In this document: positions 2,822-60,258 of the stretch, piece after piece
How positions within the stretch are numbered: the first letter of the stretch is position 1
Layout of the letters: each line of letters starts with the position of its first letter
NCBI GenBank assembly: GCA_038203615.1
Contig: JBBRDU010000001.1
Span: 14,708-78,707 of the forward strand
Length of the DNA: 64,000 bases
Direction: 5' to 3'
Origin: Chthoniobacterales bacterium
GTDB lineage: Bacteria; Verrucomicrobiota; Verrucomicrobiia; Chthoniobacterales; UBA10450
Program-made: the position numbers and the translations under genes
Notes under the pieces: generated by a model
Database searches by the model: none
What the model was told of the DNA's origin: nothing
What the model saw: only the letters and a program-made list of their open reading frames with translations

Positions 2822-2862
2822 GATGACCAAGACAGATTCACACAGATGAAGGAAAGGTGCGA

Positions 2863-2978
2863 GGTGGAACGCGCTCTCCGAGCGCGTTGTTAAAAATGTG
2901 AGCGCCGTCTGGCGCTCTAGAATCAGCGGCTTTCGCCGCTTTGGGTTTTAACATCGCCCTCGGAGAGGCCGATCCACC
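2863..2978. repeat. REP-like hairpin doublet, left flank of the RAYT gene
   Basis: 2863-2893 is GGTGGAACGCGCTCTCCGAGCGCGTTGTTAA (palindrome AACGCGCTC/GAGCGCGTT). An inverted related copy lies at 2953-2978 (reverse complement GGTGGATCGGCCTCTCCGAGGGCGAT) and abuts the RAYT stop codon. Extra small hairpins are at 2900-2917 and 2925-2940. Confidence 0.8.
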
Positions 2979-3452
2979 TCAAGTCGCCTTGTCGGGCGCC
3001 GGGTAAATCCATGGCCAGTCTTCTGGGTTGGTGCACAAACCAGCAGCCACTGGGTTTCGTCTAATGTAATCCATCTTGGCGGTCAATTGCTCGCCGCGTT
3101 CATCGTTCCTAAGCCGATGATCAAAGTAGCCTTCCTGCCAGGCGATATGATTATTGCGAGCGTGGAAACGCTTCCAATCGCCCAGAACATTGCTCATTGC
3201 CTTATCCGTCGCGAAAGAAACGAGCGCATGAAGATGATCGGGCATGAGCACAAAAATTCTGACCTACCAAAGAAGACTTTCTTCGTATACGCGAACTGAG
3301 TCTATGATGGCGGCCGCCAACTTCGGCGCTGTGAGCGCGAGAAGCTGCTTCGCGTGATCGATCGCAATGCGAATATGAAAAATCGCGCCGGACTCTACCC
3401 AGCTCGGCACTTTGTGATGCAAGCGCCTCGGGAACCCACGATAGACCTTCAC
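2979..3452 (-). pseudogene. REP-associated tyrosine (HUH/Y1, IS200-like) transposase with one in-frame TAG
   Basis: ORFs 3264..3452 and 2979..3251 are in the same frame and are separated only by TAG (3264-3266): ..VYEESLLW*VRIFVLMPDHLHALV.. The HUH motif (PDHLHAL) and catalytic Tyr (YIRRNPV) are present. Confidence 0.75.
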
Positions 3453-3468
3453 CGGGCAACAATAACAG

Positions 3469-3555
3469 GTGGAACGCGATCTCCGAGCGCGTTGTTAACC
3501 AGTTTGCGGCAACGCCGCATTTTCTAGCATCGAGCTACGGAGAGCTCGATCAACC
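3469..3555. repeat. REP-like hairpin doublet, right flank of the RAYT gene
   Basis: 3469-3498 is GGTGGAACGCGATCTCCGAGCGCGTTGTTAA, one mismatch to 2863-2893. The inverted partner is at 3529-3555 (reverse complement GGTTGATCGAGCTCTCCGTAGCTCGAT). A hairpin lies at 3505-3519. Orientation is the same as the left doublet. Confidence 0.8.
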
Positions 3556-3611
3556 TTGCGCTCCGGGGAACGGCCGCGTGTTCAATCCAAGAGCGCAGCG
3601 CTCGATCGGCC

Positions 3612-4076
3612 TCACGTCTTCTGCGGATCGCGGAAGATGGCCAGGATTTCCTCGCGAGACGTGGCGGTTCCGAGATGGTCGCGAACGGAACGGTCGTTCA
3701 AAAATTTTGCAATTGAGGCCAGGGTGCGGAGGTGCGTTTGAAACTGATTTTTCGGGACAATGAAAAGGACCACGAACTTAACGGGGGCGTTATCGAGCGC
3801 GTCGAACTCGATCCCTCCGGGAGAGCGCCCGAAAGAAGCCACCACTTCATTCAACCGGTCGGACGAACAATGCGGAATGGCGATGCCGAATCCAATCCCG
3901 GTGCTCATCGTTTCTTCCCGTTGCTTGAGGGACGCCAGAATACTTTCGCGATCAGCCGCTTGGATCTTGCCGAGGGTCGCCAGCAAGTCGATCAACTCGA
4001 CGATGGCCGGCCAGCGATCCGTGGCCTTCATCTCGGGAATAATTTGCTCAGCGGTTAATAGGTCGCCAAAAGACAT
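3612..4076 (-). CDS. ptsN: PTS IIA-like nitrogen regulatory protein (EIIA-Ntr)
   Basis: 154-aa ORF with PTS_EIIA_2-type sequence, including GIGFGIAIPHC (phospho-His context). Confidence 0.8.
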   Translation of the reverse strand: MSFGDLLTAEQIIPEMKATDRWPAIVELIDLLATLGKIQAADRESILASLKQREETMSTGIGFGIAIPHCSSDRLNEVVASFGRSPGGIEFDALDNAPVKFVVLFIVPKNQFQTHLRTLASIAKFLNDRSVRDHLGTATSREEILAIFRDPQKT

Positions 4077-6462: not shown

Positions 6463-7112
6463 GGAGCTCCTCCCAATAGCCTCGGATGGCGGTCGTAGAG
6501 ATGGGGCAGCCATTTGGGCGCGGCCCTGCGCCAGAGGAATTCGAGCGCCGCGAGGATGAGCAACGTTTCGCCGGCGGCCAGGAACAAAGTGGCCAGCACA
6601 TCGCTCGGCCAGTGCGCGCCCAGATAAATGCGCGAGTAGCTGATGGCTGCGGTGATGATCCAGTAAAGCCAGCCCCGCCGCGGGTAAAACAAGGTCAGGC
6701 AAAGAGCGATGACGGTGTTGTTGGTCGTATGGCCGGAGGGAAAGGAAGGTCCGGAGCGGCTCAAGTTTCTGTCCGATTGATCAGAAAAACGAATCTTCGG
6801 CTGGTGAAAAATTTTTAGGAAGGCCGGCTGCACCCTGGCCAGCTCGACCATGCGCACGGTTTCGACCTGCTTGGGCCGGCGCCGGTCGAAGGCCGTTTTG
6901 AGAAGGCCGGTGACCTGCTCGGAGATGACGAAGGTGAGGAGCAAGCAAAGGAGGCAGGCCCGGGCTTTGAACCGGCCGAAGACCAGGGCCAGCAGCACGA
7001 TGAGGACGAGAAGCGGTTTCCAAATCTCCGAGTCGCTCATCACCGCCATGAACAAATCGAGCGCTGGATTCGTCCATCGTTGGTTGATCAGATGAAAAAT
7101 CGCCTCATCCAT
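6459..7112 (-). CDS. PAP2-family lipid phosphatase
   Basis: All three PAP2 motifs are visible: KTAFDRRRP, PSGHT, SRIYLGAHWPSDV. Confidence 0.85.
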   Translation of the reverse strand: MDEAIFHLINQRWTNPALDLFMAVMSDSEIWKPLLVLIVLLALVFGRFKARACLLCLLLTFVISEQVTGLLKTAFDRRRPKQVETVRMVELARVQPAFLKIFHQPKIRFSDQSDRNLSRSGPSFPSGHTTNNTVIALCLTLFYPRRGWLYWIITAAISYSRIYLGAHWPSDVLATLFLAAGETLLILAALEFLWRRAAPKWLPHLYDRHPRLLGGAP

Positions 7113-7185
7113 GTGCGACAGCTTGAAGATTCACGTGTTAGCTTTTGAAGTAAGAGAGCCTGCCGGACTGACTTAAAGCTTAATA

Positions 7186-7884
7186 TTGAAAACGGAAAGC
7201 TTCTTTGCCGTGCCCAAAATAACAGCCATCTCCTTCTTCTTGCTCCTTGGGTCGATTTACGCCGAACCGGCGCCCTCCGCGAAAGATATTCTCGAATCGG
7301 TCCGGCTGCGCCAGACCCAGCAACAGATCGATCTGCAGGGCCAATTACGCCAAAACAATATCGTCGTCCCTTTTCGCCTGGTCGAGAGCGGTCCCCTCGT
7401 GCGCTACATTTTTTCGAATCCGAGCGAAGCCTTGCAACTGCAAGTCGGCGAAAAAGACTCAAGGCTCGAGGAAGTCACTGGGTCCGCTGTGGAAAAGGTG
7501 ACCCCGGCGCAATTCGATCACAAGGTGCGCGGCACCGATGTGACCTACGAGGACCTGGCCCTGAAATTTCTCTACTGGCCCGACGCGGAAGTGATGGGGA
7601 CGGATCACATTCGCACGCGCAATTGCTGGAAATTGCAGCTGCGCGCGCCCGACCGCCACTCGCAATACGGACAGGTCCTGCTCTGGGTGGACAAGTCGGG
7701 TGGCGCCCTCATGCGCATGGAAGGATATGACACCGCCGGCCAACTACAGAAGCGATTTGAGGTCGTCTCCGCCCAGAAAATCGACAACCGCTGGTTCCTC
7801 AAACAAATGCGGATCGAGCAATTCCAGCCCGGCACGAAGCACGTGCAATCGAGAACCTATCTCGAGATCAAAAACAATCGGTAG
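7186..7884 (+). CDS. LolA-like outer-membrane lipoprotein-sorting family protein (secreted)
   Basis: TTG start with a signal-peptide-like N-terminus (ITAISFFLLLGSIYAEP). Overall resembles LolA_like/DUF4367-type proteins (..WVDKSGGALMRMEGYD..RWFLKQMRIE..). Confidence 0.6.
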   Translation: MKTESFFAVPKITAISFFLLLGSIYAEPAPSAKDILESVRLRQTQQQIDLQGQLRQNNIVVPFRLVESGPLVRYIFSNPSEALQLQVGEKDSRLEEVTGSAVEKVTPAQFDHKVRGTDVTYEDLALKFLYWPDAEVMGTDHIRTRNCWKLQLRAPDRHSQYGQVLLWVDKSGGALMRMEGYDTAGQLQKRFEVVSAQKIDNRWFLKQMRIEQFQPGTKHVQSRTYLEIKNNR

Positions 7885-8861: not shown

Positions 8862-10079
8862 TTACTTTTCCTTCTTGTTGGAGAGCGCGGCCACGCCGGG
8901 CAATTCCTTCCCTTCGAGCAACTCGAGCGAAGCGCCGCCGCCCGTGGAGATAAACGTCATGCAGTCGGCCAGTCCAGCCTGCTTCACCGCCGTCACGGAA
9001 TCGCCGCCACCGATCACAGTGGTGGCGCGAGATTGGGCCAGCGCCTCGGCCATGGCGAATGTTCCTTTCGAAAAATCGGGAATCTCAAACACGCCGACCG
9101 GTCCGTTCCACAAAATGGTTTTGGCCTTGGCAATTTCCTGCTGAAAAAGCGCAATGGTGGCGTCGCCGATGTCCAAGGCGAGCCAGCCGTCGGAGATCCC
9201 ACTCTGCGGGGAGAGCCGGCTGGTATTGCGCGTTGGAGTGCCGGCGCGAATCTCTTGCGCTTCCCGCGCATCTACCGGCAACACCAGGTTGACCTTCTTC
9301 TGTCGCGCCAAATCCATCAATTCACGGGCCAGATCCAGCTTGTCCGATTCCACCCGGCTTTTGCCCACCGGAATGCCCTGGGCCTGCAAGAAAGTGTTGG
9401 CCATGGCGCCCCCAATGAGAATCGTGTCCGCCTTTTCCATGAGCGCTTTGAGCACCCCGATCTTATCGGACACCTTGGCGCCGCCCAGGATGACGAGGAA
9501 CGGTTTGGCCGGCCGATCGAGTTCTTCGTGAAGATATTTGAGTTCCTTCTCCATGAGAAAGCCCATGGCGGACTGAGGGATGAACTTCGTGATGCCGGCA
9601 GTGGAAGCGTGCGCGCGATGGGCCGCGCCGAACGCGTCGTTCACGTAGAGGTCGCCCAGCCGGGCCAAAGCCTCGGCGAATTTCGCATCGTTCGCTTCTT
9701 CTTCCGGCTGGAACCGCAAATTTTCGAGCAGGGCCACGTCGCCGTCGCGCAGACTGGCAATAATCTGCTCCGGAACTTTTCCCGTCGTTTCGTGGCTGAA
9801 GAGGACTGGGCAACCGAGCAGCGAATGGAGATAATCGGCCAGGGGGCGCAGCGAATACTTCTCGGCCCGCTGCCCTTTGGGGCGCCCGAGGTGCGACAGC
9901 AGGATCGTTTTCGCTCCCTGCTCGCGCAGGTAACGAATAGTGGGCAGCGCCTCGCGGATCCGGGTGTCGTCCGTGATATGGACATGATCTCCATGCTCCT
10001 CCAGCGGCACGTTGAAATCGACGCGCACCAGCACGCGCCGGCCGCGCACCTCGAGGTCGCGCACGGAAAGTTTATTCAT
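8862..10079 (-). CDS. pgk: phosphoglycerate kinase
   Basis: MNKLSVRDL..RVLVRVDFNVP..HLGRPKG..GGGDS. The ATG at 10079 gives the canonical N-terminus; in-frame ATGs also exist at 10094 and 10124. Confidence 0.95.
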   Translation of the reverse strand: MNKLSVRDLEVRGRRVLVRVDFNVPLEEHGDHVHITDDTRIREALPTIRYLREQGAKTILLSHLGRPKGQRAEKYSLRPLADYLHSLLGCPVLFSHETTGKVPEQIIASLRDGDVALLENLRFQPEEEANDAKFAEALARLGDLYVNDAFGAAHRAHASTAGITKFIPQSAMGFLMEKELKYLHEELDRPAKPFLVILGGAKVSDKIGVLKALMEKADTILIGGAMANTFLQAQGIPVGKSRVESDKLDLARELMDLARQKKVNLVLPVDAREAQEIRAGTPTRNTSRLSPQSGISDGWLALDIGDATIALFQQEIAKAKTILWNGPVGVFEIPDFSKGTFAMAEALAQSRATTVIGGGDSVTAVKQAGLADCMTFISTGGGASLELLEGKELPGVAALSNKKEK

Positions 10080-10158
10080 GGCCGCTGGAGTCATGGAGGG
10101 GTGGAGTGCTGTCAGTGAATTCATTGCTTCACTACTCCATCACTCCCGTTCTCCAATC

Positions 10159-11160
10159 TTATCCCCCTAACAACTCCAGCATTTCCACGCAGCGGTTGCT
10201 GTAGCCCCATTCGTTGTCGTACCAGCCGACCACTTTGAAGAATTTGTCGCCTAGGGAGAGCGTCAGTTTGCTGTCAAAAATACAGGAGTGCGGATTGCCC
10301 ACGATGTCCTGCAGAACGAGCGGCTCATTCGAAAATTCGAGCACGTTTTTGTAACTCTTGTTTTTAGCGGCCTCCTGAAACGCGGCGTTCACCTCCTCGA
10401 TGCTGGCCTTGTTCTTAAGCAACGCGGTGAAATCGGTGACCGATCCATCCGGCGTCGGAACGCGAAATGCCCCGCCATTCAGTTTTCCGTTCAACTCCGG
10501 GATGACTTCGCCGATGGCCTTGGCCGCGCCGGTGCTGGAGGGAATGATGTTGACGGCGGCGGCGCGGGCGCGCCGCAAATCCTCGTGCGGCAGATCGAGG
10601 ATGCGCTGGTCGTTCGTGTATGAGTGAATCGTGCTCATGAAACCCCATTCGATGCCAAACTGGTCGTTCAGAACCTTGACCATGGCGGCGAGGCAATTGG
10701 TCGTGCAGCTCGCGTTGGAGACGATGTGGTGTTTGGACGCATCGTAAATCTGGTCGTTGATGCCAAGGCAGATGGTGGCGTCCGGTTTCTTGGCCGGCGC
10801 GCTAATCAACACCTTGCGCGCGCCCCCTTTGGAAATGTGCAGTTCCGCTTTTTCGCGGCTCGTGAAAAACCCGGTCGATTCCAGGACTACGTCCACCTTC
10901 AAGTTTTTCCAGGGCAAAGCCGCCGGATCGCGCTCCTTCAAGATCTTGATCTGATGGCCGCGCACAACGATGTTTTCCTCATCGTATCCGACTTCGCCGT
11001 CGAATTTTCCGTGGACCGAATCCCATTTCAGGAGATGAGCGAGGGTGTGCGTGTCGGTCAAGTCGTTGACCGCGCGGACCTGCTCTACTTGTTGCTGCGT
11101 CATGGCGCGCAGAACATTGCGCCCGATGCGTCCGAAGCCGTTGATAGCGTAGTTAGCCAT
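10159..11160 (-). CDS. gap: glyceraldehyde-3-phosphate dehydrogenase
   Basis: INGFGRIGR, SNASCTTNCL, WYDNEWGYS. Confidence 0.95.
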   Translation of the reverse strand: MANYAINGFGRIGRNVLRAMTQQQVEQVRAVNDLTDTHTLAHLLKWDSVHGKFDGEVGYDEENIVVRGHQIKILKERDPAALPWKNLKVDVVLESTGFFTSREKAELHISKGGARKVLISAPAKKPDATICLGINDQIYDASKHHIVSNASCTTNCLAAMVKVLNDQFGIEWGFMSTIHSYTNDQRILDLPHEDLRRARAAAVNIIPSSTGAAKAIGEVIPELNGKLNGGAFRVPTPDGSVTDFTALLKNKASIEEVNAAFQEAAKNKSYKNVLEFSNEPLVLQDIVGNPHSCIFDSKLTLSLGDKFFKVVGWYDNEWGYSNRCVEMLELLGG

Positions 11161-17675: not shown

Positions 17676-17763
17676 GCGAAACCTCGCTTGTCAGGGCGGG
17701 TTGCATGGTCGATATCGATTTCCACATTCGGTCCTTATGAAATTTTTTCGCATTCTCCTCCTG
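17676..17763 (+). repeat. 88-bp direct repeat, upstream copy
   Basis: 84/88 identical to 18930-19017. It contains ATGAAATTTTTTCGCATTCTCCTCCTG, a copy of the lysozyme gene start. Confidence 0.9.
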
Positions 17764-17773
17764 TGCAATCGAA

Positions 17774-17805
17774 GATTGGGGTCGTATCTAAATATTTGAC
17801 ATTTT
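17774..17805 (+). repeat. left inverted repeat of the Y1-DnaA_C element
   Basis: GATTGGGGTCGTATCTAAATATTTGACATTTT. It matches the reverse complement of 18803-18834 at 28/32. It ends 25 nt before the ATG. Confidence 0.85.
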
Positions 17806-17830
17806 TTCTCGGATTAGGGAGGGTTGGTGG

Positions 17831-18820
17831 ATGGCACGGGCGTTGCGGCTGGAGTTTGAAGGAGCGCTGTATCATATTTGTGCGCGTGGGAATCGCCGGG
17901 AGCGCATTTTCGCTGACGAGCAGGATTGCGAGCGTTTTCTTCTCCTGTTGCGGGAATCAATTGGCCGCTACGAAGTGGAAGTTCACGCCTACGTCCTTTT
18001 GCCCAACCACTTTCATCTTCTGGCGCGGACGCTCAAGGCGAACCTCAGCCGATGGATGCACTGGCTGGTGGCGGTTTATAGCATTCAGTTTAATCGCCGG
18101 CACAAGAAGACGGGCCATCTTTTCCAGGGCCGTTACAAGAGCTTTGTGGTCGATGGCGGGGATTACCTGCTCGGGGTGAGCCGTTATTTGCATCTTAACC
18201 CGGTGCGTGGCCGGGTCATCGGAGCGGGTGATCCCAAAGAACGGCGAGGGCGCCTGCGGGCCTATCCCTGGAGCAGTTATCGGGGTTACGCGGGCCTGGG
18301 AAAACAGGATGACTTTGTCAGCGAAGAGTTGGTTTTAGGCGAGTTTGGCGGACGACTCATTCAGCAGGACAAGCTTCGCTACCGGCGCTTTGTCGAAGAG
18401 GGTCTGTTCCGTGAGATCGAAAACCCCTTCGAGGCCGTGCAATGGCAAATGGTGTTGGGTGGCGAATCGCTGGTGCGAAGAGTCAAAGACAAGCTGCGAG
18501 CTAAAGGGGATCAATCGCGAGAAGTCACGGGGTTGCGCCGCGCCGCCAGTAGAAGTCAGCCGAAGGGGCTGGTGGCGCTGGTGGCATCGCATTGCGGAAT
18601 TTCGGTAGCCAAACTTCTACGAAAACCGGCCTACGGGTCGGAGGCTCATAACCTGGCTATTTGGCTGGTCTGGCAAAACAGTGGGCTGACCCTGCGTGAG
18701 ATTGGCATGATGTTTGGCGGAATCGACTATGCGGCCGTGAGCCAGCGGATCAGGCGAATTGAAAAGCGGGCAGAAACTGACAATCGATTAAGGCAAACAC
18801 TCAAAATATTGAATATTTAG
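17831..18820 (+). CDS. IS200/RAYT-like HUH Y1 transposase fused to a DnaA domain IV-like HTH
   Basis: YHICARGN.., HUH motif LLPNHFHLLA, catalytic Tyr RYLHLNPV. The C-terminal ~90 aa (..NSGLTLREIGMMFGGIDYAAVSQRIRRIE..) resemble Bac_DnaA_C. Confidence 0.8.
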   Translation: MARALRLEFEGALYHICARGNRRERIFADEQDCERFLLLLRESIGRYEVEVHAYVLLPNHFHLLARTLKANLSRWMHWLVAVYSIQFNRRHKKTGHLFQGRYKSFVVDGGDYLLGVSRYLHLNPVRGRVIGAGDPKERRGRLRAYPWSSYRGYAGLGKQDDFVSEELVLGEFGGRLIQQDKLRYRRFVEEGLFREIENPFEAVQWQMVLGGESLVRRVKDKLRAKGDQSREVTGLRRAASRSQPKGLVALVASHCGISVAKLLRKPAYGSEAHNLAIWLVWQNSGLTLREIGMMFGGIDYAAVSQRIRRIEKRAETDNRLRQTLKILNI

Positions 18821-18834
18821 ATACGGCCCCAATC
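18803..18834 (-). repeat. right inverted repeat of the Y1-DnaA_C element
   Basis: The reverse complement reads GATTGGGGCCGTATCTAAATATTCAATATTTT. It overlaps the TAG stop (18818-18820). It contains the palindrome AAATATTCAATATTT. Confidence 0.85.
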
Positions 18835-18863
18835 CCCCCAAAACGGCCCCAATCCCCCCAAAA
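18824..18863 (+). repeat. perfect 20-nt tandem duplication
   Basis: CGGCCCCAATCCCCCCAAAA x2. The first unit overlaps the end of the right inverted repeat. Confidence 0.9.
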
Positions 18864-18929
18864 GCGGACATGACATGAGGGTGGTTCTTCGCGTAAAGGT
18901 CGAACAACGTCTTGGGATGCTCAGCTAGG

Positions 18930-19017
18930 GCGAAACCTCGCTTGTCAGAGCGGGTTGCATGGTCGATATCGCTTTCCACATTCGGTCCTTATGAAACTTT
19001 TTCGCATCCTCCTCCTG
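18930..19017 (+). repeat. 88-bp direct repeat, downstream copy
   Basis: 84/88 identical to 17676-17763. It supplies the ATG (18991) and codons 1-9 of the lysozyme gene. Confidence 0.9.
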
Positions 19018-34934: not shown

Positions 34935-35002
34935 AAGAGAATTATTTTAACCGCGGATCCGCCTACGTCGAGGCTACGGCGCGACAGGTTACGCGGATTT
35001 CA
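34935..35002 (+). repeat. 68-nt interspersed repeat, copy X1
   Basis: 58/68 identical to 36145-36212 (..ACCGCGGATCCGCCTACGTCGAGGCTACGGCGCGACAGGTTACGCGGAT..). A more diverged copy lies near 40940-40990. Confidence 0.8.
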
Positions 35003-35086
35003 CAGATGGGGATGAGGCAGGCCGCTCTAACGCTTCACGCGGCGAAGCTGCGCCGCCTGCGCAGGCGCTTTCAGCTTTTCAGCGTG

Positions 35087-36044: not shown

Positions 36045-36144
36045 GCGGGCACTCTAACCGAATTCTCGCTCAAGGACGATCAACCCCGAAATGTTTCGGG
36101 GCCGTCCAAAGGCAGGCGAATCAACGCTCAACCATCACCTTCCA

Positions 36145-36212
36145 TTTCTACCGCGGACCCGCCTATGTCGACGCTACGGCGCGACAGGTTACACGGATCA
36201 CACGGATAGGGA
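36145..36212 (+). repeat. 68-nt interspersed repeat, copy X2
   Basis: See X1. It is in the same orientation, so the YdeI and CDGSH genes lie between direct repeats. Confidence 0.8.
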
Positions 36213-37565: not shown

Positions 37566-37799
37566 CTATCGCTGAGCGGATCGCGTCTCCAATGTCAAAA
37601 GTGAAGATCTGACCCAAATTCCCCTCAAATCCTTCTTCCCTGAAAAGGAGAGCGCGGCGACGTCTCCGCGCTGATAACGCCCCAACATTAGTAATATCAA
37701 CAGCGGCTTGTGAGGAGCGCGGCGATCGCCGAGCGGCGCTTGTCGCAGGTTGGAGAAGCGCTCGGAAAGGTCCGTGTATGTGAGGCTCGTGTAACTCAT
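37566..37799 (-). pseudogene. truncated N-terminal fragment of an HNH-type restriction nuclease paralog
   Basis: MSYTSLTYTDLSERFSNLRQAPLGDRRAPHKPLLILLMLGRYQRGD.. The RAPHKPLL..LGR.QRG block is one I associate with the N-terminal domain of McrA-like HNH enzymes. The ORF stops after 77 aa with no HNH part. Confidence 0.4.
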
Positions 37800-37830: not shown

Positions 37831-38232
37831 CTAGTTGTGCCATCCGAGAAGGTCTGCGGTCGGTCGTTCTGCATCTGAGTTCGGCACGGCAATTCGTTTA
37901 CCCCGCAAAGGATAGTAGGTTGTGCCGTTTTGCCAGTCGTTGCGTAGGCGATCGCTGACTTCGAGAGTGTATTCAGGAGTGACCGTGAGATAGCCCCGTT
38001 CGAAGAGACGATGAAGGTCTGCTCGGAGCAGCAGTCCATTTCGTACTTCGTGGGGCCCCTCCTTTGCAAATGGCCGAATGTGCGCGGCTTCGAGGGCTGG
38101 TAGCGAGTGTTCTTCGGTCACCGCACAGGCGCGATGATACGCATCAGTTACAGAGACACGGAAAGCGCCTTGCCGGAGCCGTGGCTGAATAAGTATAGGC
38201 TGGCCGTATCGCGGCCCCTCAATAATCCGCAA
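37831..38232 (-). CDS. HNH_2-type nuclease domain protein (short, possibly 5'-truncated)
   Basis: ..PRLRQGAFRVSVTDAYHRACAVT..LEAAHIRPF....NGLLLRADLHRLFERGYLTV.. TTG start, an in-frame stop 9 codons upstream, and no SD seen. Confidence 0.6.
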   Translation of the reverse strand: MRIIEGPRYGQPILIQPRLRQGAFRVSVTDAYHRACAVTEEHSLPALEAAHIRPFAKEGPHEVRNGLLLRADLHRLFERGYLTVTPEYTLEVSDRLRNDWQNGTTYYPLRGKRIAVPNSDAERPTADLLGWHN

Positions 38233-38284: not shown

Positions 38285-39004
38285 TCATTGAAATCGCCGA
38301 TCGTATTCGCGCGAGACGCGGGTTAGGACCGACGAGTATTCCATTTCAGTATTGCCCAGATCGACCCACTCGAATGGAAACGGCTTTGCGTTCGTGGCGC
38401 GGAACGGCAGAATCTGAAATTCATCGAATGCTGGACGAGCTCTTTCCTCTAGGCGCTGCTCGGCTTGGGCGGCTTCTTGAATGGGATGCTTGTATCTCTT
38501 CCCGTCAGTCGGCCAGCGCTTCCGCCCTTCGAACGAGACGTATTGTTCAGCGAAGTTAATCCCGACAAAGGCGACACAGATCGGATTGCCGCCGCCGCGC
38601 TTAAATTGCGTCACCTGATTCGTCAGGTCGTTAATGACGCGGTCGATCTGCTTGATCATCGCTTTAGCCAGAATCTTCGTTTCGGCGCCAATCTCGATCG
38701 TTGCGACAGGACCGCGCGCCACAAGCATTCCTTTCTCAGTAACTGCGAGCGCCGCAGGGACTAGCTCGCCGAAGGTTCCATCACCGCGCCGCGACGGTTT
38801 TCCGGTCATGACATTCTTTAGGTTCACCACGCGTTCGTGGTGCTCGACACGTTCTAAGAGTTTTGCCGACTTCTTGAGCGCGGCGAGATCTTCGTAGAGA
38901 TACGAGGCAACGAGGTCGCCCAGGTTCGCGATGCGGTGACGATACGGTTTGCCTTCGAAAAGGCCGCGGAACGTCCGAAGTAAGGAATATTTTTCGACGC
39001 TCAT
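38285..39004 (-). CDS. candidate type II restriction endonuclease (unassigned family)
   Basis: The 239-aa ORF has its ATG overlapping the methyltransferase stop (ATGA). A possible PD-(D/E)XK arrangement is present (..RRGDGTF.. then ..IEIGAETKIL..). The call rests mainly on context. Confidence 0.5.
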   Translation of the reverse strand: MSVEKYSLLRTFRGLFEGKPYRHRIANLGDLVASYLYEDLAALKKSAKLLERVEHHERVVNLKNVMTGKPSRRGDGTFGELVPAALAVTEKGMLVARGPVATIEIGAETKILAKAMIKQIDRVINDLTNQVTQFKRGGGNPICVAFVGINFAEQYVSFEGRKRWPTDGKRYKHPIQEAAQAEQRLEERARPAFDEFQILPFRATNAKPFPFEWVDLGNTEMEYSSVLTRVSREYDRRFQ

Positions 39005-40137
39005 CTCTCGACTCGGAGAGTCGAATGACTGGCCCCAAACGTCCGTGGCATTCCCGTGGCAAGATGAAGGCGCTGCTCTGCGATCTTCAGATAAGCCGAC
39101 TCGATTTCGTTCCCAATGCTATTCCGCCCAGTCGCAACAGCGGCGAGATTCGTCGTCCCCGTCCCGACAAAGGGATCGAGAATCGTATCGCCAGCGAACG
39201 AGAAGAGCTTGATCAGCCGCTCAGCAAGACTTTGAGGATACGGAGCGGGATGACCACGCCGCGTCGATTCACCTTTGATGTCGAGCCATGCAGATCGCAG
39301 CCATGATTTCATTTCTTCTTTCGTTAACATCGACAACACCTTTTGCATCGGACTTGGCGAACGGTATTCGCCGCCCTTCCGCAAGAGGAGAATGTATTCA
39401 ACGTCGTTCTTAATGATTGCGCCTGGTTGGTAGGGTTTTCCGTAGAATCCTGCGCCGTTGCCTTTGGCTTCAGTCACTCCGTTCGCGATCTTGAACCAAA
39501 GAATTGGAGTTAAAGCGTCCAGCCCGAACTTGCGTGCGCGCACCATGATGTCCGCATGCAACGGCATAACGCGATGGCGTCCCTCGCACCTCGGAATGCA
39601 AACATCGCCGACAACGCAGCAAATGCGCCCGCCCGGGGCGAGAACGCGTGCGCATTCGCGCCAGACCTTGTCCAATTCGTCCAAAAAGCTGTCGTAATTC
39701 GCGATCTCGCCGAGCTGTTGCTCATTATCTTCGTATTTCTTTAACGTCCAGTAGGGAGGTGACGTAACGACAAGATGGACACTCTGAGTCGGAATCCAGG
39801 ATAAATCGCGAGCGTCGCCGAGCCGAAGATGATGCGTAGTTTTATCGAAAGGTTCCGGCCAAGGATGGGTCCGGAAATGGGCATTCTTCGCTAATAGTTT
39901 CGTGATTGCACCGCGTTCGTTGTCTGAAAAATCGACAGTGGCGCTTGCCGGATCGAATATTTCAGTCGGAGTTTTATCCGTCCGCTTATCCTTCGGCCGG
40001 TGGTGTCGAAATCCGTTCGTCGTGCCGTTTGCCGACTTTCTGACGAGGTAAAGCTGCTCGTGTTCTTTAACCACGGCTCGCTTTCTTCGGGGATGCGCCA
40101 GAGGAACGCTCTTCGTGACCACTGAGCTTTTCGGCAT
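39001..40137 (-). CDS. beta-class DNA methyltransferase (SPPY motif IV, N4-cytosine type likely)
   Basis: VVTSPPYWTLKKY (motif IV) precedes ILDPFVGTGTT (motif I), which is the beta-class order. It has a ~110-aa basic N-terminal extension. ATG at 40137; the track start at 40164 is TTG. Confidence 0.85.
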   Translation of the reverse strand: MPKSSVVTKSVPLAHPRRKRAVVKEHEQLYLVRKSANGTTNGFRHHRPKDKRTDKTPTEIFDPASATVDFSDNERGAITKLLAKNAHFRTHPWPEPFDKTTHHLRLGDARDLSWIPTQSVHLVVTSPPYWTLKKYEDNEQQLGEIANYDSFLDELDKVWRECARVLAPGGRICCVVGDVCIPRCEGRHRVMPLHADIMVRARKFGLDALTPILWFKIANGVTEAKGNGAGFYGKPYQPGAIIKNDVEYILLLRKGGEYRSPSPMQKVLSMLTKEEMKSWLRSAWLDIKGESTRRGHPAPYPQSLAERLIKLFSFAGDTILDPFVGTGTTNLAAVATGRNSIGNEIESAYLKIAEQRLHLATGMPRTFGASHSTLRVER

Positions 40138-40411
40138 AGCGATGTTTAACACGCCGTCTTCCAAACCGCTATGAAATTCAATTCACGCCTCAAGGTGTCG
40201 CCCGGGTCGATCCCAACGGTTACCCCTCCTATTCCAAGGTTTGGGGAACGACCAAGGAGACCAAACCGTTGCGCGACGAAGTGCGTGAGCGGTTGTCGCA
40301 AGCGCGCTTTGTTCCGGCCGTTTGTGAGCATCGACATGTGTGGGGGTGGTTTTACGGAACGGTGGCCTTTAGCGTCGTCGACGGAAAACCGCATCTCAGA
40401 ATTTTTGCCAA

Positions 40412-40449
40412 TTGCGTAGATTAAGGTCGGTTGCGTAGATTAAGGTCGT
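40412..40449 (+). repeat. 19-nt tandem duplication at the edge of unit A
   Basis: TTGCGTAGATTAAGGTCGG / TTGCGTAGATTAAGGTCGT. The second unit runs into the GGTCGTGTCTAAACATT core. Confidence 0.85.
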
Positions 40450-40603
40450 GTCTAAACATTTGACATTTGATGACGGGGAAAGCGGATTCCTATCACGCCG
40501 TGTGCTGATCATCGGCAGGCAAAGGTTCTAGGCAGGATTAGCCTGATTCTTACGAGACCCCCCTCAGCGAAACCGACCCTTTGATCTGCGGTCTCAATCT
40601 CCC
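40444..40603 (+). repeat. ~160-nt repeat unit A (Y1-element core + conserved mini-ORF + 36-nt R box)
   Basis: The core GGTCGTGTCTAAACATTTGACATTT (40444-40468) resembles the IRs at 17774 and 18834. The stretch 40451-40549 aligns with 43303-43401. The R box is at 40568-40603. Confidence 0.75.
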
Positions 40604-40704
40604 TGCTCTCCTCTTCTCTATCATAACCCGCTTATGATCGATGAGTTTTGACCGAAGAAAGTGTGCCGGGGCGGGAAGACCTTTCCTAAAAGCAGGTGTT
40701 TAAA

Positions 40705-40732
40705 ACTCGACGGCTTTAAGCCGTCGAGTTTC
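40705..40732. terminator. bidirectional-looking stem-loop
   Basis: ACTCGACGGC-TTTAA-GCCGTCGAGT is flanked by TAAAA on the left and TTT on the right. On the minus strand it follows an apparent orphan 3' coding end (..APRSNDPTKLTDALAELYKPPT*). Confidence 0.5.
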
Positions 40733-40841
40733 CCTACCTGAAACACTACTACGTCGGCGGTTTGTACAATTCGGCGAGAGCGTCGGTGAGCTTTGTTGGA
40801 TCATTCGAGCGCGGCGCGACCAGGGCCGTGAAGCAGCGGCC

Positions 40842-40877
40842 CGAAATCGACCATTTGATCTGCGGTCTCAATCTCCC
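40842..40877 (+). repeat. 36-nt R box, second copy
   Basis: CGAAATCGACCATTTGATCTGCGGTCTCAATCTCCC, 34/36 identical to 40568-40603. Confidence 0.85.
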
Positions 40878-40892
40878 AGTGCGGGGCTAGAC

Positions 40893-40919
40893 GGGGTCGT
40901 ATCTAAACATTCAATATTT
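40893..40919 (+). repeat. solo copy B of the Y1-element core
   Basis: GGGGTCGTATCTAAACATTCAATATTT, compared with the reverse complement of 18803-18834, GGGGCCGTATCTAAATATTCAATATTT. Confidence 0.8.
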
Positions 40920-41150
40920 GAGGTAAGAATTTCGACGACAAATCCGCCTACGCCGAGCCTTCGTCGCGGCCAGGCGCGTATCGGATGTGGCAATTCGTAA
41001 CTTATTTCGTCTTGCGGCCGAGAAAGATGATTTCGGTGTTGCTGCCACCGCCGTCTTCGGGGGCGTAGGTTATCATGGAATTCATTTCCGAGCCGGTGCC
41101 GGTGCCGGTCAATTGCCAGTCGCCCCTATTTGTGCTGCCATTTCTTCGCA

Positions 41151-41261
41151 CCAGCCCTGGAAACGGCGCTGGAGCGCGCCTTGAAATACGTCGAAGCCGG
41201 CCGAGTGCGCCCCGTTGAGGAAGTAAAGGCCATGATCGCGCGATGGACTTCAAAGTCCTGA
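41151..41261 (+). pseudogene. remnant of a type II antitoxin 3' end, overlapping a degraded toxin start
   Basis: The frame reads ..PALETALERALKYVEAGRVRPVEEVKAMIARWTSKS*, with no plausible N-terminal part upstream. An overlapping ATG at 41243 gives MDFKVLIAGKKGG.., which breaks at an A7G5 run. A ..DLSSI.. block appears in another frame. Confidence 0.3.
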
Positions 41262-41486
41262 TCGCAGGAAAAAAAGGGGGTCGGATCTCTCATCTATCAT
41301 AGGCGGCTTACGATGAATGGCACCTGGTTCGAAGGACCTTGAGTCCGTCGAATGGCTTCGTACCGCGACGACGTCAGCGCGACGAGCGTTGTCGCGATGT
41401 GAAGGCGTGACTTGAAGCGGTCTTTTTGCGATCCCGTGTTGCAATATTCGACTTGATTGACACTAATAACTCGTTAGGCTAAAGCG

Positions 41487-42314
41487 TTGGTCGAAACCAA
41501 GCTGGCAATAGTCTTTCTCGTACTATTCGTCACCGAAGCGGCTAAGGCATTACACGCTGCGGTCCCGGCAGGACCTGTGCCTGCGCGCGAGGTGGAGGCA
41601 CTGCTCAAGCAGTCCAGCGAAAAACGGCAGAGCAAGCAAGCGCGACAATATCAGGACCGGTTTCTTGAAGCGATTAATTCGACGTTGATCGCCGCGATGA
41701 AGTCGTGCACGGGCAAGACGCCCGATACGATACAGCCCGGCTCCATTGCATTCATCATCGGCGCGGATGGGCGTGTGAGGCGTCTGTTGTGGTCAGCTGA
41801 GATTCCGATGGCGGAGTGTATTGCGGAAAGGCTCCGCTCGATCACGACGCTGCCCAAGCCGCCTAAGGATAACTGGGTCGACGGAATCGGTGTGGCCAAT
41901 CACGAGCACGCGCAAAAGAACGCGCCAGTCGATAAGCCAATGAAGATGACAAAGGAACAGCTGGCTGAATACGACAAGGCAATCAGGCCTTATATCGCAA
42001 AAGCGAGAGCGACTTATCCCGTGGCAAAGGCTCGGTTTCTCGCGGGTTTGCCGTCAGGCTGTAGTCTTTCGGTTCGTGTTCGCCTGTTTGATCCAAATGG
42101 TCTTCGCGAAGATTCGTTCATCGGGGTAACGAGGATTAGCGGAAACAAAATCACGGGCGTGCTTGGGACGGTAGATATCCTTAAGAGCTACAAGAAGGGT
42201 CAGACCATCACGGTGAAAGAGAGCCAAATTGATAATTGGCTGATTCTGCGGCCGGACGGAAGCGAAGAAGGAAACGCCGTCGGCAAGTTCCTGGATCATG
42301 ACAAACCCAACTAA
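41487..42314 (+). CDS. secreted protein with a C-terminal DUF2314-like domain
   Basis: TTG start and a hydrophobic N-terminus (KLAIVFLVLFVTEAAKA). The C-terminal ..SFIGVTRISGNKITGVLG....GQTITVKESQIDNWLILRPDG.. resembles DUF2314. Confidence 0.6.
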   Translation: MVETKLAIVFLVLFVTEAAKALHAAVPAGPVPAREVEALLKQSSEKRQSKQARQYQDRFLEAINSTLIAAMKSCTGKTPDTIQPGSIAFIIGADGRVRRLLWSAEIPMAECIAERLRSITTLPKPPKDNWVDGIGVANHEHAQKNAPVDKPMKMTKEQLAEYDKAIRPYIAKARATYPVAKARFLAGLPSGCSLSVRVRLFDPNGLREDSFIGVTRISGNKITGVLGTVDILKSYKKGQTITVKESQIDNWLILRPDGSEEGNAVGKFLDHDKPN

Positions 42315-42330
42315 GTTGGCCGATTCACAC

Positions 42331-42798
42331 ATGCGAATTGTTTCGCTCCTTGCCATCTACTTCTTCTCGGTTCCCTTTGCGGGCGCTGTAGATATCCGCC
42401 AATTCGATTTAAAGACCACCGAGCGCCTTGGCAATCTTCTGGTCCAGCTCAGCCAACGTTCCGATTGCGGCGCTACAACCGCGGCGAAGAGGCGAGCAAG
42501 GGTGACGGCCATCGCCGCGCTTAACGGGAGCCTTTATCATGATGTTCGTTATGAATACGTTGTTCTGGACGACCCCACGGAGAAGGGCTTCCTAGTCTAC
42601 GCGCTCGCGACCTCCCAGAAGAAAAGTGATATCTCCACGGGGGGCCATTACCGCGTCACGGTGTCATCCGATGGCTCTACCGCCAAACAGGTTGATTTAC
42701 TGTCCCAGCTGATACGCCAGCCGAAAGCCAGTGCAGGCAATCAGGTCGTCGCTGTCGTGTCCTCGCAGATTGCGGGCAACATTCCCGTCGAAACATAG
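42331..42798 (+). CDS. secreted hypothetical protein (may be a TAG-interrupted pseudogene extending to 42960)
   Basis: Signal peptide MRIVSLLAIYFFSVPFAGA. I recognise no family. The frame stays open for 53 more codons after TAG 42796-42798. Confidence 0.5.
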   Translation: MRIVSLLAIYFFSVPFAGAVDIRQFDLKTTERLGNLLVQLSQRSDCGATTAAKRRARVTAIAALNGSLYHDVRYEYVVLDDPTEKGFLVYALATSQKKSDISTGGHYRVTVSSDGSTAKQVDLLSQLIRQPKASAGNQVVAVVSSQIAGNIPVET

Positions 42799-43140
42799 AT
42801 TTATTCGAGCGATCTCTACCACATGCCGATGTATGTGGCGGTGATGAAGGATGGGTCGTCCTGGGGCGTGATGAATGGCCGAATTGTTAGGGGGGATGAC
42901 AAAGGGCCCAAGAATCACCTGGATATTATGAACAAGAGAGCCCCCGAGGTTTCGCGATAAAAACGTCAGTGCCGCCTTCACTTGAATCCGTCACTGGTCC
43001 GCCCCATCCACGGATTCGCGGGCCCCGTGTGGATCATTGGTGCGGAGTAACCCACGGCTTCGAGTGTAACGCAGCCGGCACCGCCGGCACTAGCGACTGG
43101 AGCGATGCCGGAACCTTGATGGTTATCCGTTAGGGAAAAG

Positions 43141-43457
43141 GGGGTCGCATCTAAAGGGCGTGTTGCCCAAATGACAAATGGTCGGGAAGACACGTTCTTC
43201 GAGGGTTCAAATGACCTTAACCGAAAATCAAAACGCACTATGGGTCAATTTAGCGCGTCGTTGTTTCTTGATTTGTTTGACAGCGATTTGGGCAACACGC
43301 CCTAAAAACATGTGACATATGACGACGAGGGAAGCGGACTCCTATTGCGTCGCGTTCTCATCATCGGCAGGCAAAGGTGTTGGACAGGATTGGCCCGATC
43401 CCGCGCCTGCGGGACGAGCCCCTTGAATGAAGTGATCTGAATCCAAGAAATCTCTCC
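43141..43457 (+). repeat. repeat unit C (paralog of unit A), interrupted by a MITE
   Basis: GGGGTCGCATCTAAA | MITE | AACATGTGACATATGACGACGAGGGAAGCGG... 43303-43401 aligns with 40451-40549. A degenerate R box follows. Confidence 0.75.
43156..43302. mobile_element. 147-bp MITE-like insertion
   Basis: Perfect 17-nt terminal inverted repeats GGGCGTGTTGCCCAAAT (43156-43172) and ATTTGGGCAACACGCCC (43286-43302). TAAA is present on both flanks. No ORF inside. It splits the core motif of unit C. Confidence 0.75.
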
Positions 43458-43528
43458 GCGGCGAGTCCATCCCTTGGCGGACCTGTTAATCCTGTCTATA
43501 TATCTTCTTCTTCCGTTAGTTCTTAGAG

Positions 43529-44743
43529 ATGAACCGTGTTCTTGTGATAGGCGGTGGGCCGGCGGGGATGCGCGCGGCGGAGATCGCCAGCGCGACCGGC
43601 GCACGAACCATCCTGTGCGATGCGCAGACTTCGTTTGGACGCAAGTTACTCATCGCGGGACGCGGCGGCTTGAATCTGACGCACAGCGAGCCGGTTGAGA
43701 ATTTTCCGGAGCGATACGGGACGGAGCCGGAGCGTTGGCGTGATCTGCTGAACGTATTTGGGCCGGTTCATTTGCAGGAATGGGTGCACTCATTGGGGAT
43801 CGATACTTATGTCGGATCGAGCGGCCGCGTCTTTCCGGAAGGGCAGAAAGCGGCGGGACTTTTGCGGGCGTGGCTGGAGCGGTTGCGCACGAACGGCGTG
43901 GAATTTCAAATGGGTGCGCGCTTCGCCGGGCTGAAACGGGTGGAGAATGGGTGGCGTGTGCGTTTCGAAGGTGGAAAGCAACTCGAGGCGAAGGCGGTGG
44001 TGCTCGCGCTCGGAGGCGCTTCCTGGCCGGAGACCGGCTCGGATGGAAAGTGGCCGGTCATTCTCGAGGGAATGGGGATTGAGATCACACCCTGGCAGCC
44101 GGCTAATTGCGGATGGGAAGTCAATTGGCCGCCGGAATTTCTGGAGCGCGCGGAAGGCAAACCGCTCAAGAATTTGACGGTGTGGGCCGGCCATTCGACG
44201 GGCTCAGGCCCCTCGGGGATCTTGCCTGACCGAGGGGAAGCGGTCTTGGGCGAGTTGCTTGTCACCAAATATGGTCTGGAAGGCGGCGCGATCTACCGGC
44301 TCGGTCGGGCTTTGCGCGCGATGCCTGAACCGGAGTTGGTCATCGATTTCAAGCCGCAACTAACCGTCGATCTTTTGCGCGAGCGCGCGGCGGATCTGAG
44401 TGGAAGCGCGGAATGGTTGCGCGCCTGGAAATTGCATCCGGCCGCGGTCGCCTTGTTGGAGACTCAGGACCTCGGCGATGATCTGGAACGAACGATCGAG
44501 CAGGTGAAGAATTTCAGGATCCGACTGCAGTGGCCGCGGCCGATCGCGGAAGCCATCTCTTCGGCGGGCGGAGTGCCATGGAGCGAGCTGGACGAAGGGC
44601 TGATGTTACGCAAGGCGCCGGGTGTATTTGTGGCGGGCGAGATGATTGATTGGGAGGCGCCGACGGGCGGCTATCTGCTGCAGGGATGTCTTGCGACGGG
44701 GAGTCGTGCTGGGGCCAGCGCGGCGAGCTTTGTGCGCGAATAG
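43529..44743 (+). CDS. HI0933/YhiN-like FAD-dependent flavoprotein
   Basis: MNRVLVIGGGPAGMRAAE.. (dinucleotide fold) and a C-terminal VFVAGEMIDWEAPTGGYLLQGCLATG, typical of the HI0933 family. Confidence 0.85.
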   Translation: MNRVLVIGGGPAGMRAAEIASATGARTILCDAQTSFGRKLLIAGRGGLNLTHSEPVENFPERYGTEPERWRDLLNVFGPVHLQEWVHSLGIDTYVGSSGRVFPEGQKAAGLLRAWLERLRTNGVEFQMGARFAGLKRVENGWRVRFEGGKQLEAKAVVLALGGASWPETGSDGKWPVILEGMGIEITPWQPANCGWEVNWPPEFLERAEGKPLKNLTVWAGHSTGSGPSGILPDRGEAVLGELLVTKYGLEGGAIYRLGRALRAMPEPELVIDFKPQLTVDLLRERAADLSGSAEWLRAWKLHPAAVALLETQDLGDDLERTIEQVKNFRIRLQWPRPIAEAISSAGGVPWSELDEGLMLRKAPGVFVAGEMIDWEAPTGGYLLQGCLATGSRAGASAASFVRE

Positions 44744-59449: not shown

Positions 59450-60258
59450 TTCAGATCCTTCTCGTGGTGGTCCGGGACGAATTTGTTTCCACCGGCGAGC
59501 GCACGCAACCGGCGCCACGTGTCGTAGATGACACTCACACCGGACGTTCCTTGTTCAAGAACGCGCCATTCGCCCGGATCACGCCGGCACGACCGCGCAG
59601 CGAGTTCGTCCTGAACTTCTTCGAGCGCGTTGTTAAAGAATTTCGTCCACTCCTGCGCGCTGCGTGGGGAGTCGTTTCCAGGAATTGTGGGTTCGCCGAA
59701 GGAGACTAGAATCTCGGGCCGAGGTTCGGTCCAAAAAGCATATTCAATCGCCAGGGGTAGAAATAAGACGTTCTCAAGTCGCGCGGCCAATTCGCCGATC
59801 CCGCGCTCAAGCCGGAGCGGACGCTCACGCACGTCCATGAAACGTCCCTGTGGTGTGAGCCAGACAACGTTTCGAGAAGAGCTGAGAATTGCGCAAGTAG
59901 TCCGGACAAATGTCATCGCGCCACGGGCCGACTGCTGCTCGACACCGTAAAAGCCGAGATGCTTAAAGAAGCCGTATTTCTGGAGCGCGGCGGCGTCAAT
60001 TGGCGCATACGACGCGCGGTCGGAGAAATATTTCTGGGCCAGGCGCAAGCAGACGAGAGGGTCCCACCAGGCTGCGTGATTCAGGTAGATGACCACCGGG
60101 CAGGCGATGTTGCTGGACGGCAGTCCGCTTTTCAAAACGCGGATTGTCTGAAAATGCCGACGCATATATCGGCGGCTGTAGGCCGCAAACATTCGGACAA
60201 GGCGCCCGGAGATTTTAGGCGGAGCCGCCGTTGGTTTCGGATGCGTTGCGAGTTTCAT
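59446..60258 (-). CDS. PlsC/LPLAT-family acyltransferase
   Basis: H(x)4D motif YLNHAAWWDP. An alternative ATG at 60336 would overlap the upstream gene by 77 nt. Confidence 0.75.
   Translation of the reverse strand: MKLATHPKPTAAPPKISGRLVRMFAAYSRRYMRRHFQTIRVLKSGLPSSNIACPVVIYLNHAAWWDPLVCLRLAQKYFSDRASYAPIDAAALQKYGFFKHLGFYGVEQQSARGAMTFVRTTCAILSSSRNVVWLTPQGRFMDVRERPLRLERGIGELAARLENVLFLPLAIEYAFWTEPRPEILVSFGEPTIPGNDSPRSAQEWTKFFNNALEEVQDELAARSCRRDPGEWRVLEQGTSGVSVIYDTWRRLRALAGGNKFVPDHHEKDLK

Follow-up and report, generated by a model that had tools for sequence, protein, structure and literature searches.

Terminal inverted repeats of a TIRtron recur in a restriction-modification island of a Chthoniobacterales genome, probably as decaying element ends

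The repeats of REPIN-RAYT systems consist of a short palindrome with a GTAG or CGTC tag, usually arranged as inverted doublets, and insertion sequences (IS) of the IS200/IS605 type carry subterminal hairpins, no terminal inverted repeats (TIRs) and a TnpA without a helix-turn-helix (HTH) extension. To our knowledge, a further group, the TIRYT proteins and the TIRtron elements that encode them, is widespread yet experimentally uncharacterised, its mode of movement included. Here we describe a stretch of 64,000 nucleotides from a Chthoniobacterales bacterium (contig JBBRDU010000001.1; hereafter the window, to which all positions refer unless a comparison locus is named), which contains one intact TIRtron and, within a restriction-modification (R-M) island some 20 kb further on, additional copies of its TIR. 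Di Nocera et al. (2013) introduce the names TIRYT (TIR-associated tyrosine transposases) for the proteins and TIRtrons for the elements, and describe flanking TIRs that carry GGGGWSAS; in some genomes these TIRs make up repeat families of single, dimeric or grouped copies, which have spread without the gene (PMC3733652). Quentin et al. (2018) assign the proteins with a DnaA_C domain to subclass 2.1.2 of the TnpA-REP superfamily and detected no repetitive extragenic palindromic (REP) hairpins in their vicinity (PMC6006769). The core that recurs in the window is the TIR of a Y1_Tnp plus Bac_DnaA_C element of this TIRYT/TIRtron class. We consider it likely that the island holds a cluster of decaying TIRtron end fragments, that two of them (units A and C) go back to one fragment, and that the short reading frame which these two share is fortuitous.

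The intact TIRtron combines a RAYT-like Y1 HUH transposase gene that has a C-terminal HTH with bounding TIRs and the absence of REP hairpins, and further TIR copies exist besides its two functional ends, namely A, B, C and E, with D doubtful. The protein matches PF01797 at 6.3e-13 and PF08299 (Bac_DnaA_C) at 5.4e-6, the latter below the Pfam gathering score; PF08299 is precomputed on nearly all homologues. NF047646 is matched at 2e-16, below its own cut-off. Homologues amount to at least 5769 proteins at E <= 1e-10 among 8000 candidates scored. The stop codon of the gene falls inside the right TIR, the protein ending in …LKILNI. The 25-nt core of the TIR (GGGGTCGTATCTAAAYATTYRAYAT) is located at 17778 (+) and 18806 (-) in the element itself and recurs at 40442 (+, 3 mismatches) and 40893 (+), with an expectation of 0 in shuffled sequences; its first 15 nt are also present at 43141, and the remainder resumes at 43303. 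A preliminary description of this DNA had reported the core at both inverted repeats and at three island sites (unit A, copy B and unit C), and had suggested that the island units and the Y1-DnaA_C gene belong to one system. On both counts it was right, the copies being the TIR of this element, near invariant around homologous genes; its observation was partly confirmed, in that the recurring core is borne out overall and the peptide that it read from the units is not.

Compared with the described systems, the locus sits squarely among the TIRtrons (PMC3733652) and subclass 2.1.2 (PMC6006769). It shares with them a Y1 HUH domain joined to a Bac_DnaA_C-like HTH, TIRs that begin with GGGG(T)(C), a right TIR that overlaps the 3' end of the gene, and extra TIR copies as singles and groups. 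It differs in its core, GGGGTCGT, which is not a strict GGGGWSAS, and in two copies that have an extra 80 nt in common. The window copies are new members of the already described TIRtron TIR repeats and relics. A single-copy Y1 gene flanked by a cognate short repeat that is also dispersed intergenically recalls the REP/REPIN-RAYT systems; however, the window repeats lack both a palindromic hairpin and a GTAG/CGTC tag, and they are 25-40-nt TIRs, few, mostly degraded and not arranged as inverted doublets. In contrast to IS200/IS605, the window element has TIRs, no hairpins and a 329-aa protein with a DnaA_C domain. At the TIR ends no DNA fold was better than those of shuffled sequences (z-scores -0.75 to +0.57), and the ends are therefore neither REP-like nor IS200-like. 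A last resemblance is to IS relics in genomic islands, which likewise appear as isolated mutated ends in low-GC DNA beside a miniature inverted-repeat transposable element (MITE), IS3-like fragments and dispersed repeats, although the parent here is a Y1/HUH element and not a DDE insertion sequence.

For comparison we used six TIRYT homologues whose proteins are 74-80% identical to that of the window (loci L069, L142, L143/L144, L149 and L150/L151). The 25-nt core is nearly invariant around the genes of these loci, with 0-1 mismatch, and a TIR-bounded gene is likewise found in L142, L143, L149 and L150. The two ends of the element differ in sequence: left ends read CATTTGACAT, in longer form …AAACATTTGACAT, and right ends read CATTCAA(C/T)AT, in longer form …AAACATTCAA(C/T)AT, encoding the C-terminal LN(I/V)-stop. 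By this criterion A and C are left-type ends and B is a right-type end. Against GGGGWSAS, the window core agrees at 6 of 8 positions; closer forms are GGGTCAGA in copy E, GGGGTCTG at 2630 in L142 and GGGGTCAA at 13631 in L143, and the variants of E, L142c and the solo copy of L143 fit GGGGTCAG/TG/AA. From the window, the TIR can thereby be cleanly defined as ~25-40 nt long, its left and right variants being distinct. One of the comparison loci, the soil metagenome contig L142, carries three Y1 genes (2728-3666, 6779-7768 and 10001-10990) within 11 kb of an Rhs/YD-repeat toxin locus; two are TIRYT paralogues and the other is a divergent 312-aa form with its own TIR variant, GGGGTCTGATCTCCACATTTGACAT. 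In L143, the TIRYT gene likewise follows an Rhs gene.

Searches of the 64-kb window with nhmmer profiles built from TIRs of other loci recovered seven TIR-like copies, five of which lie between 37.6 and 43.4 kb (Table 1); E and the doubtful D are additions to the copies first described. All island copies have the same orientation except E, which is separated from the others by the R-M genes and points its outer end towards the island. Copy E also carries ~30 nt of TIRtron leader, seen as 75% identity over 52 nt to the left end of L143 (BLAST, E = 0.003). Copy B is 93% complementary to 18804-18830, the resident right end, and has no gene attached. The core of unit C bears 2 mismatches and a 2-nt insertion and is interrupted by a MITE.

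Table 1. Positions of the TIRtron, its TIR copies and neighbouring features in the window.
Feature	Position	Strand	Description
Intact TIRtron	17774-18834	+	1061 bp; TIRs around a single TIRYT gene
TIRtron arms	17774-17805 and 18803-18834		32-nt imperfect TIRs, 88% complementary
TIRYT gene	17831-18820	+	329 aa; Y1_Tnp + C-terminal Bac_DnaA_C helix-turn-helix
Copy E	37592-37624	-	degenerate left-type TIR (GGGGAATTTGGGTCAGATCTTCACTTTTGACAT); nhmmer E = 0.01-0.014
Unit A TIR	40438-40468	+	left type (…CATTTGACAT), 3 mismatches to family core; nhmmer E = 1.5e-5
Copy B	40889-40922	+	near-perfect solo right-type TIR (…CATTCAATATTTGAG), 0 mismatches; nhmmer E = 2e-8
Copy D	~41272-41301	+	doubtful, strongly degenerate (GGGGGTCGGATCTCTCATCTATCAT); profile match 41272-41289, E = 0.19-0.31, not significant alone
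Unit C TIR, outer half	43134-43155	+	GGAAAAGGGGGTCGCATCTAAA; 1 mismatch; nhmmer E = 0.02-0.045
Unit C TIR, inner half	43303-43320	+	TAAAAACATGTGACATAT; left type
Tandem duplication, unit A	40412-40448	+	18 nt twice, 1-nt spacer, 100% identity
Unit A extension	40469-40547	+	79 nt, common only to unit C
Unit C extension	43321-43399	+	79 nt, homologous to 40469-40547
MITE	43156-43302		147 bp; perfect 17-18-bp inverted ends (GGGCGTGTTGCCCAAAT); inside unit C TIR
Mini-ORF A	40460-40531	+	TTG…TAG, 23 aa; judged not a gene
Mini-ORF C	43312-43440	+	GTG…TGA, 42 aa; judged not a gene
R box 1	40568-40603	+	36-nt repeat; outside the part shared by A and C
R box 2	40842-40877	+	34/36 to R box 1; 15 nt upstream of copy B
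Hairpin	40703-40731		perfect 14-bp, AAACTCGACGGCTT/AAGCCGTCGAGTTT; terminator-like, between R boxes
Dispersed-repeat copy	40929-40968	+	directly 3' of copy B; unrelated to TIR
HNH protein	37831-38232		island gene
Type II methyltransferase	39001-40164		island gene
Orphan ORF	41487-42314		weak DUF2314 match
Orphan ORF	42298-42798		island
Flavoprotein promoter, plausible own	43474-43502	+	TTGGCG-17-TATATA, downstream of unit C; by eye

Units A and C have more in common than the TIR. Positions 40454-40547 align with 43306-43399 at 81% over 94 nt, and the homology in total spans ~106 nt at ~80%, made up of a 25-31-nt TIR and an extension of 79-80 nt. Outside the TIR the two units are 79.7% identical over 79 nt (BLAST), a stretch of which the window contains no third copy; within the TIR their alignment is conserved no better than in the extension, with ~80% in both. 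Beyond 40547 and 43399 the similarity is no better than in shuffled sequences, 187 of 1000 of which do as well. The ~106 nt fall short of the about 140 further nucleotides, an R box included, that had previously been attributed to both units, and BLAST finds no R box in unit C. The two R boxes, one belonging to unit A and one to the region before copy B, match at 34 of 36 positions, as formerly reported. They bracket 238 nt that hold the perfect 14-bp hairpin, which makes them another long direct repeat around a short inserted segment. If the R box were a degenerate TIR in inverted orientation, unit A would be a MITE of the form TIR-x-TIR; the R box, however, gave no score against two TIR profiles at E < 100, and an 11-nt complementarity is at chance level by estimate. 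Similarity of the extension to copies E or D was not significant.

Outside the window, public collections were scanned with one exact 18-mer, ATCATCGGCAGGCAAAGG, the longest stretch identical in A and C, which would miss most copies below ~95% identity. It was met at 67 loci in 185,579 species-representative genomes and at 64 in metagenome contigs; none of these matches extends past ~22 nt, so that all are chance matches. The TIR core had 0 matches in viral contigs, and the unit had no blastn match in plasmids. For another origin proposed earlier, in which the units are the 5' part of a known gene that was duplicated recently, no significant similarity to the 5' end of either candidate gene was seen. 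By eye, the unit could be read as a decayed TIRYT N-terminus with collinear ATG, YH and QD. The tests do not support this reading: a profile of 120 TIRYT homologues matched nothing in six-frame translations of the units, Smith-Waterman comparison of the unit with the TIRYT 5' end against shuffles was not significant, and an nhmmer profile of four left-end interiors found nothing in the units. Derivation of the unit from the 5' end of the flavoprotein gene (RRVLIIG against NRVLVIGGG) fares no better, 72 of 300 and 237 of 300 shuffles being as good.

The short open reading frame (mini-ORF) of each unit has the frame and stop given for it in the preliminary description, and five codons indeed differ at the third position only. 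The pattern of synonymous substitution read from them is weak. The 18 differences between A and C fall on codon positions 1, 2 and 3 as 4, 6 and 8, and position 3 accounts for 7 of the 14 inside the ORF (binomial p = 0.15). For the proposed frame the ratio of non-synonymous to synonymous differences (pN/pS) comes to 0.32 (Fisher p = 0.03, without correction for the six frames); the +2 frame, interrupted by stops in both copies, yields 0.35 (p = 0.04). The run of five differences at a spacing of 3 has p ~0.011 if only period 3 is considered, and 0.06 if all periods from 1 to 6 are allowed. The starts differ (TTG and GTG), no ribosome-binding site is visible, and the MITE ends 9 nt before the start of mini-ORF C. 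A profile of the two peptides shared no words with 5.8 billion protein clusters, a full HMMER scan of 1.84 billion representatives returned only two spurious tandem-repeat matches, and Pfam gave nothing on either plausible frame of the unit. In start, ribosome-binding site, length, frame-specific pattern and homologues, the mini-ORFs do not resemble a small protein or leader peptide. At the RNA level, Rfam yielded nothing at the gathering score in the whole window and only snoRNA-type noise at E up to 10 in 40200-43600, and the folds of units A and C on both strands were no better than shuffles (z-scores -1.6 to +0.4). The promoter scan found no promoter-like site in the units, and by eye the TTGACA of the left TIR is not followed by an acceptable -10 box at a distance of 16-18 nt. 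The units contain no coding or RNA signal; we take the short open frame to have arisen by chance in a stretch of 70-130 nt and do not regard it as a gene. Accordingly, the mini-ORF should not be annotated; the best labels for the region are TIRtron end relics plus MITE.

The insert in unit C, a probable MITE, has produced a TAAA target duplication (43152-43155 and 43303-43306) and is single-copy in the window. It resembles MITEs in being small, in having no ORF and in its perfect TIRs and short target duplication (TAAA), and unlike them in being present only once here and in having a 16-nt end that recurs at the same TIR position in L142. Where the TIR half of unit C meets the MITE end, the sequence (GGGAAAAG…GGGGTCGCATCTAAA|GGGCGTGTTGCCCAAA) is found again at 9544-9585 of L142, in 36 of 39 positions. 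The second junction belongs to another organism and another TIR variant (GGGGTCAAATCTCAA|GGGCGTGTTGCCCAAA), with the 16-nt end at the identical TIR position (L142 9552-9585). Since the window TIR continues normally past the MITE, this is a case of insertion into a TIR, and its position is identical in the two genomes. The coincidence of these junctions suggests an IS or MITE that targets TIRtron ends.

A different rearrangement was observed at the outer end of the TIR. At three ends, the outer 11-12 nt of the TIR together with 7-9 nt of unrelated flank are duplicated in tandem (18-20 nt twice): the right end of the window element (18821-18860), the right end of L069 (3996-4033) and unit A (40412-40448). 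In unit A, 7 nt of flank and 11 nt of outer TIR make up the duplicated segment, the exact end of which is ...GGTCG|TGTCTAAA. All three duplications begin at one bond, …TTTAGA(T/C)A|CG… or, read on the opposite strand, CG^T(A/G)TCT. As the flank parts differ among the three sites, the duplications are independent and share a boundary to the single nucleotide. The ends of L142, L143, L149 and L150 have no such duplication, and the available parts of the TIRtron literature contain no description of an outer-TIR duplication with a fixed boundary. The boundary may mark the nick site of TIRYT. For work on HUH/Y1 transposases, the precise duplication boundary, with its hint at a cut site, and the possible TIR-homing IS or MITE are leads.

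We propose that the accessory island collected TIRtron ends, of which B would be a near-perfect right end, E a left end with leader and D a doubtful scrap. Units A and C would stem from a single ancestral fragment of 'left TIR + 80 nt', by duplication or by mobilisation in trans, and would then have drifted neutrally to ~80%, the TIR as much as the extension, before the MITE split unit C. In this reconstruction we infer that the island copies are non-functional relics and that A and C had one progenitor. Set against the near-invariant TIRs at intact elements, the degraded TIR cores of A and C are what neutral decay predicts. Several points weigh on the other side. The extension exists in only two copies, too few for a statistical demonstration of neutrality, and the run of five differences at an exact 3-nt spacing (p ~0.01) goes unexplained if the stretch was never coding. 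The A/C homology starts at the outer TIR end and stops sharply, which also fits a discrete mobile unit. The census covers the 64-kb window, so that further copies may exist elsewhere in the source genome, and the 18-mer on which the public scans rest is blind to more diverged copies. 

The sharp limits of the A/C homology speak for a non-autonomous satellite, REPIN-like or one-ended, in which 'left TIR + 80 nt' was copied in trans by the resident TIRYT. The homology begins at the outer TIR end and breaks off 106 nt on, the flanking sequences being unrelated on either side; there is an intact TIRYT gene at a distance of 22 kb, unit A shows the same outer-TIR tandem duplication as genuine element ends, and gene-free TIR families are reported for the TIRtron class (PMC3733652). 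Nevertheless we regard such a satellite as unlikely: there are two copies only, ~20% diverged and with degraded TIR cores, the other end has no inverted second TIR (the R box scoring nothing against TIR profiles), and the exact 18-mer revealed no copies in 185,579 reference genomes or the metagenome collection. Quite unlikely in our judgement is a reading of the island copies as footprints of TIRYT action, in which a nick and staggered 18-20-nt processing would leave the tandem duplications, 'TIR + 80 nt' would be a one-ended or aberrant product, and the IS or MITE with the end GGGCGTGTTGCCCAAA a parasite of TIRtron ends; the cut predicted from it may lie at CG^TA within GATTGGGGYCGTATCTAAACATTTGACAT. 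Units A and C could also be the two arms of an old, long direct duplication, made when the 2.6-kb segment between them was inserted beside a pre-existing TIR relic. The arms run in the same direction on either side of a low-GC segment with the R boxes, copies B and D and two orphan ORFs, and the window offers two other such cases, the 88-nt repeat around the TIRtron and the 36-nt R boxes around 238 nt. This origin, however, asks that the left breakpoint coincide with the TIR end by chance, and upstream of the flavoprotein gene the related genomes show no synteny; we hold it to be improbable.

Readings that give the units a present function fare worse. Retention of the TIR copies because the DnaA-type HTH of TIRYT binds them, or because they serve neighbouring genes as a regulatory leader or structured RNA, is very improbable. 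The TIR core is extremely conserved at active elements, where its part TATCTAAAC may be the candidate target of the DnaA_C domain, and the island copies are intergenic and lie beside the methyltransferase and flavoprotein genes; yet A, C, D and E are precisely the degraded ones, the units show no RNA family match, no fold beyond shuffles and no promoter-like site, and orthologous flavoprotein genes do without the unit. The mobile promoter or leader cassette suggested at first finds no promoter-like site in the unit and a flavoprotein gene with a plausible box of its own downstream. A small protein or leader peptide (…RRVLIIGRQR…) under purifying selection we consider extremely improbable. Its frame is open in both copies, four of the five codons that differ at the third position only are consecutive, and pN/pS is low with a nominal Fisher p = 0.03; the stop-containing frame is similar, though, with overall differences of 4/6/8, so the statistics single out no frame. 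Starts of TTG and GTG without a visible Shine-Dalgarno sequence, lengths of 23 and 42 aa, a MITE 9 nt upstream in C and protein searches without homologues likewise count against it. The cluster of decaying TIRtron ends accordingly stays the reading that we prefer.

The island itself (~37.6-43.5 kb) has a GC content of 0.52-0.57, compared to 0.60-0.65 in its flanks. Next to the methyltransferase gene is an ORF of 239 aa that has no family match and is probably a nuclease; the island also includes ~1.3 kb without recognisable genes, as well as copies of other repeats. Unit C precedes the flavoprotein gene, and the gap of 88 nt between the stop of mini-ORF C and ATG 43529 was correctly described before. 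Flavoprotein orthologues (76-80% identity; from Verrucomicrobiota or Chthoniobacterales according to the sources) have upstream regions of 50-160 nt that are unrelated, and neither TIR nor unit was found upstream of them. Their downstream neighbours look similar, and upstream synteny is lost. Because the orthologues have short, unrelated upstream regions while the downstream side is similar, the stretch of 37.6-43.5 kb is accessory DNA, a horizontally acquired or accessory R-M island. The plausible flavoprotein promoter is not listed by the promoter scan, whose rule needs a T at position 6 of the second hexamer.

Repeats unrelated to the TIR are also present. A dispersed repeat of 40-70 nt (ATTTnnACCGCGGAyCCGCCTAyGTCGAsGCTACGGCGCGACAGGTTAC…) occupies intergenic positions at 34944-35012, 36144-36212 and 40929-40968. 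Around the intact TIRtron, an 88-nt direct repeat of 95% identity (17676-17763 and 18930-19017) brackets the element plus 95 extra nt. It holds the upstream region and the first 9 codons (MKFFRILLL / MKLFRILLL) of a signal-peptide gene at 18955; as the repeat includes this gene start, TIRtron insertion duplicated the start and left an intact copy of the gene downstream. The 95 nt 3' of the right TIR (18835-18929; …CCCCCAAAAGCGGACATGACATGAGG…) resemble, by eye, ~9735-9940 of L142 (…CCCCCGAAAAGTGGACATGACAC…), which lies upstream of an IS3-type OrfA-like fragment. At L143 9640-9966, the TIRtron abuts an rve_3 fragment, and IS3-family debris repeatedly neighbours TIRtrons of the subfamily found in the window. 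A second Y1-type gene at 2979-3452 (-) is apparently frameshifted and has a weak PF01797 match and the motif PDHLHAL. It is flanked by 32-nt direct repeats of 97% identity (2862-2893 and 3467-3498), which also occur at 59618-59643 and contain a palindrome (AACGCGCTCTCCGAGCGCGTT); together, gene and palindromic repeats look like a separate RAYT/REP-like system in the window.

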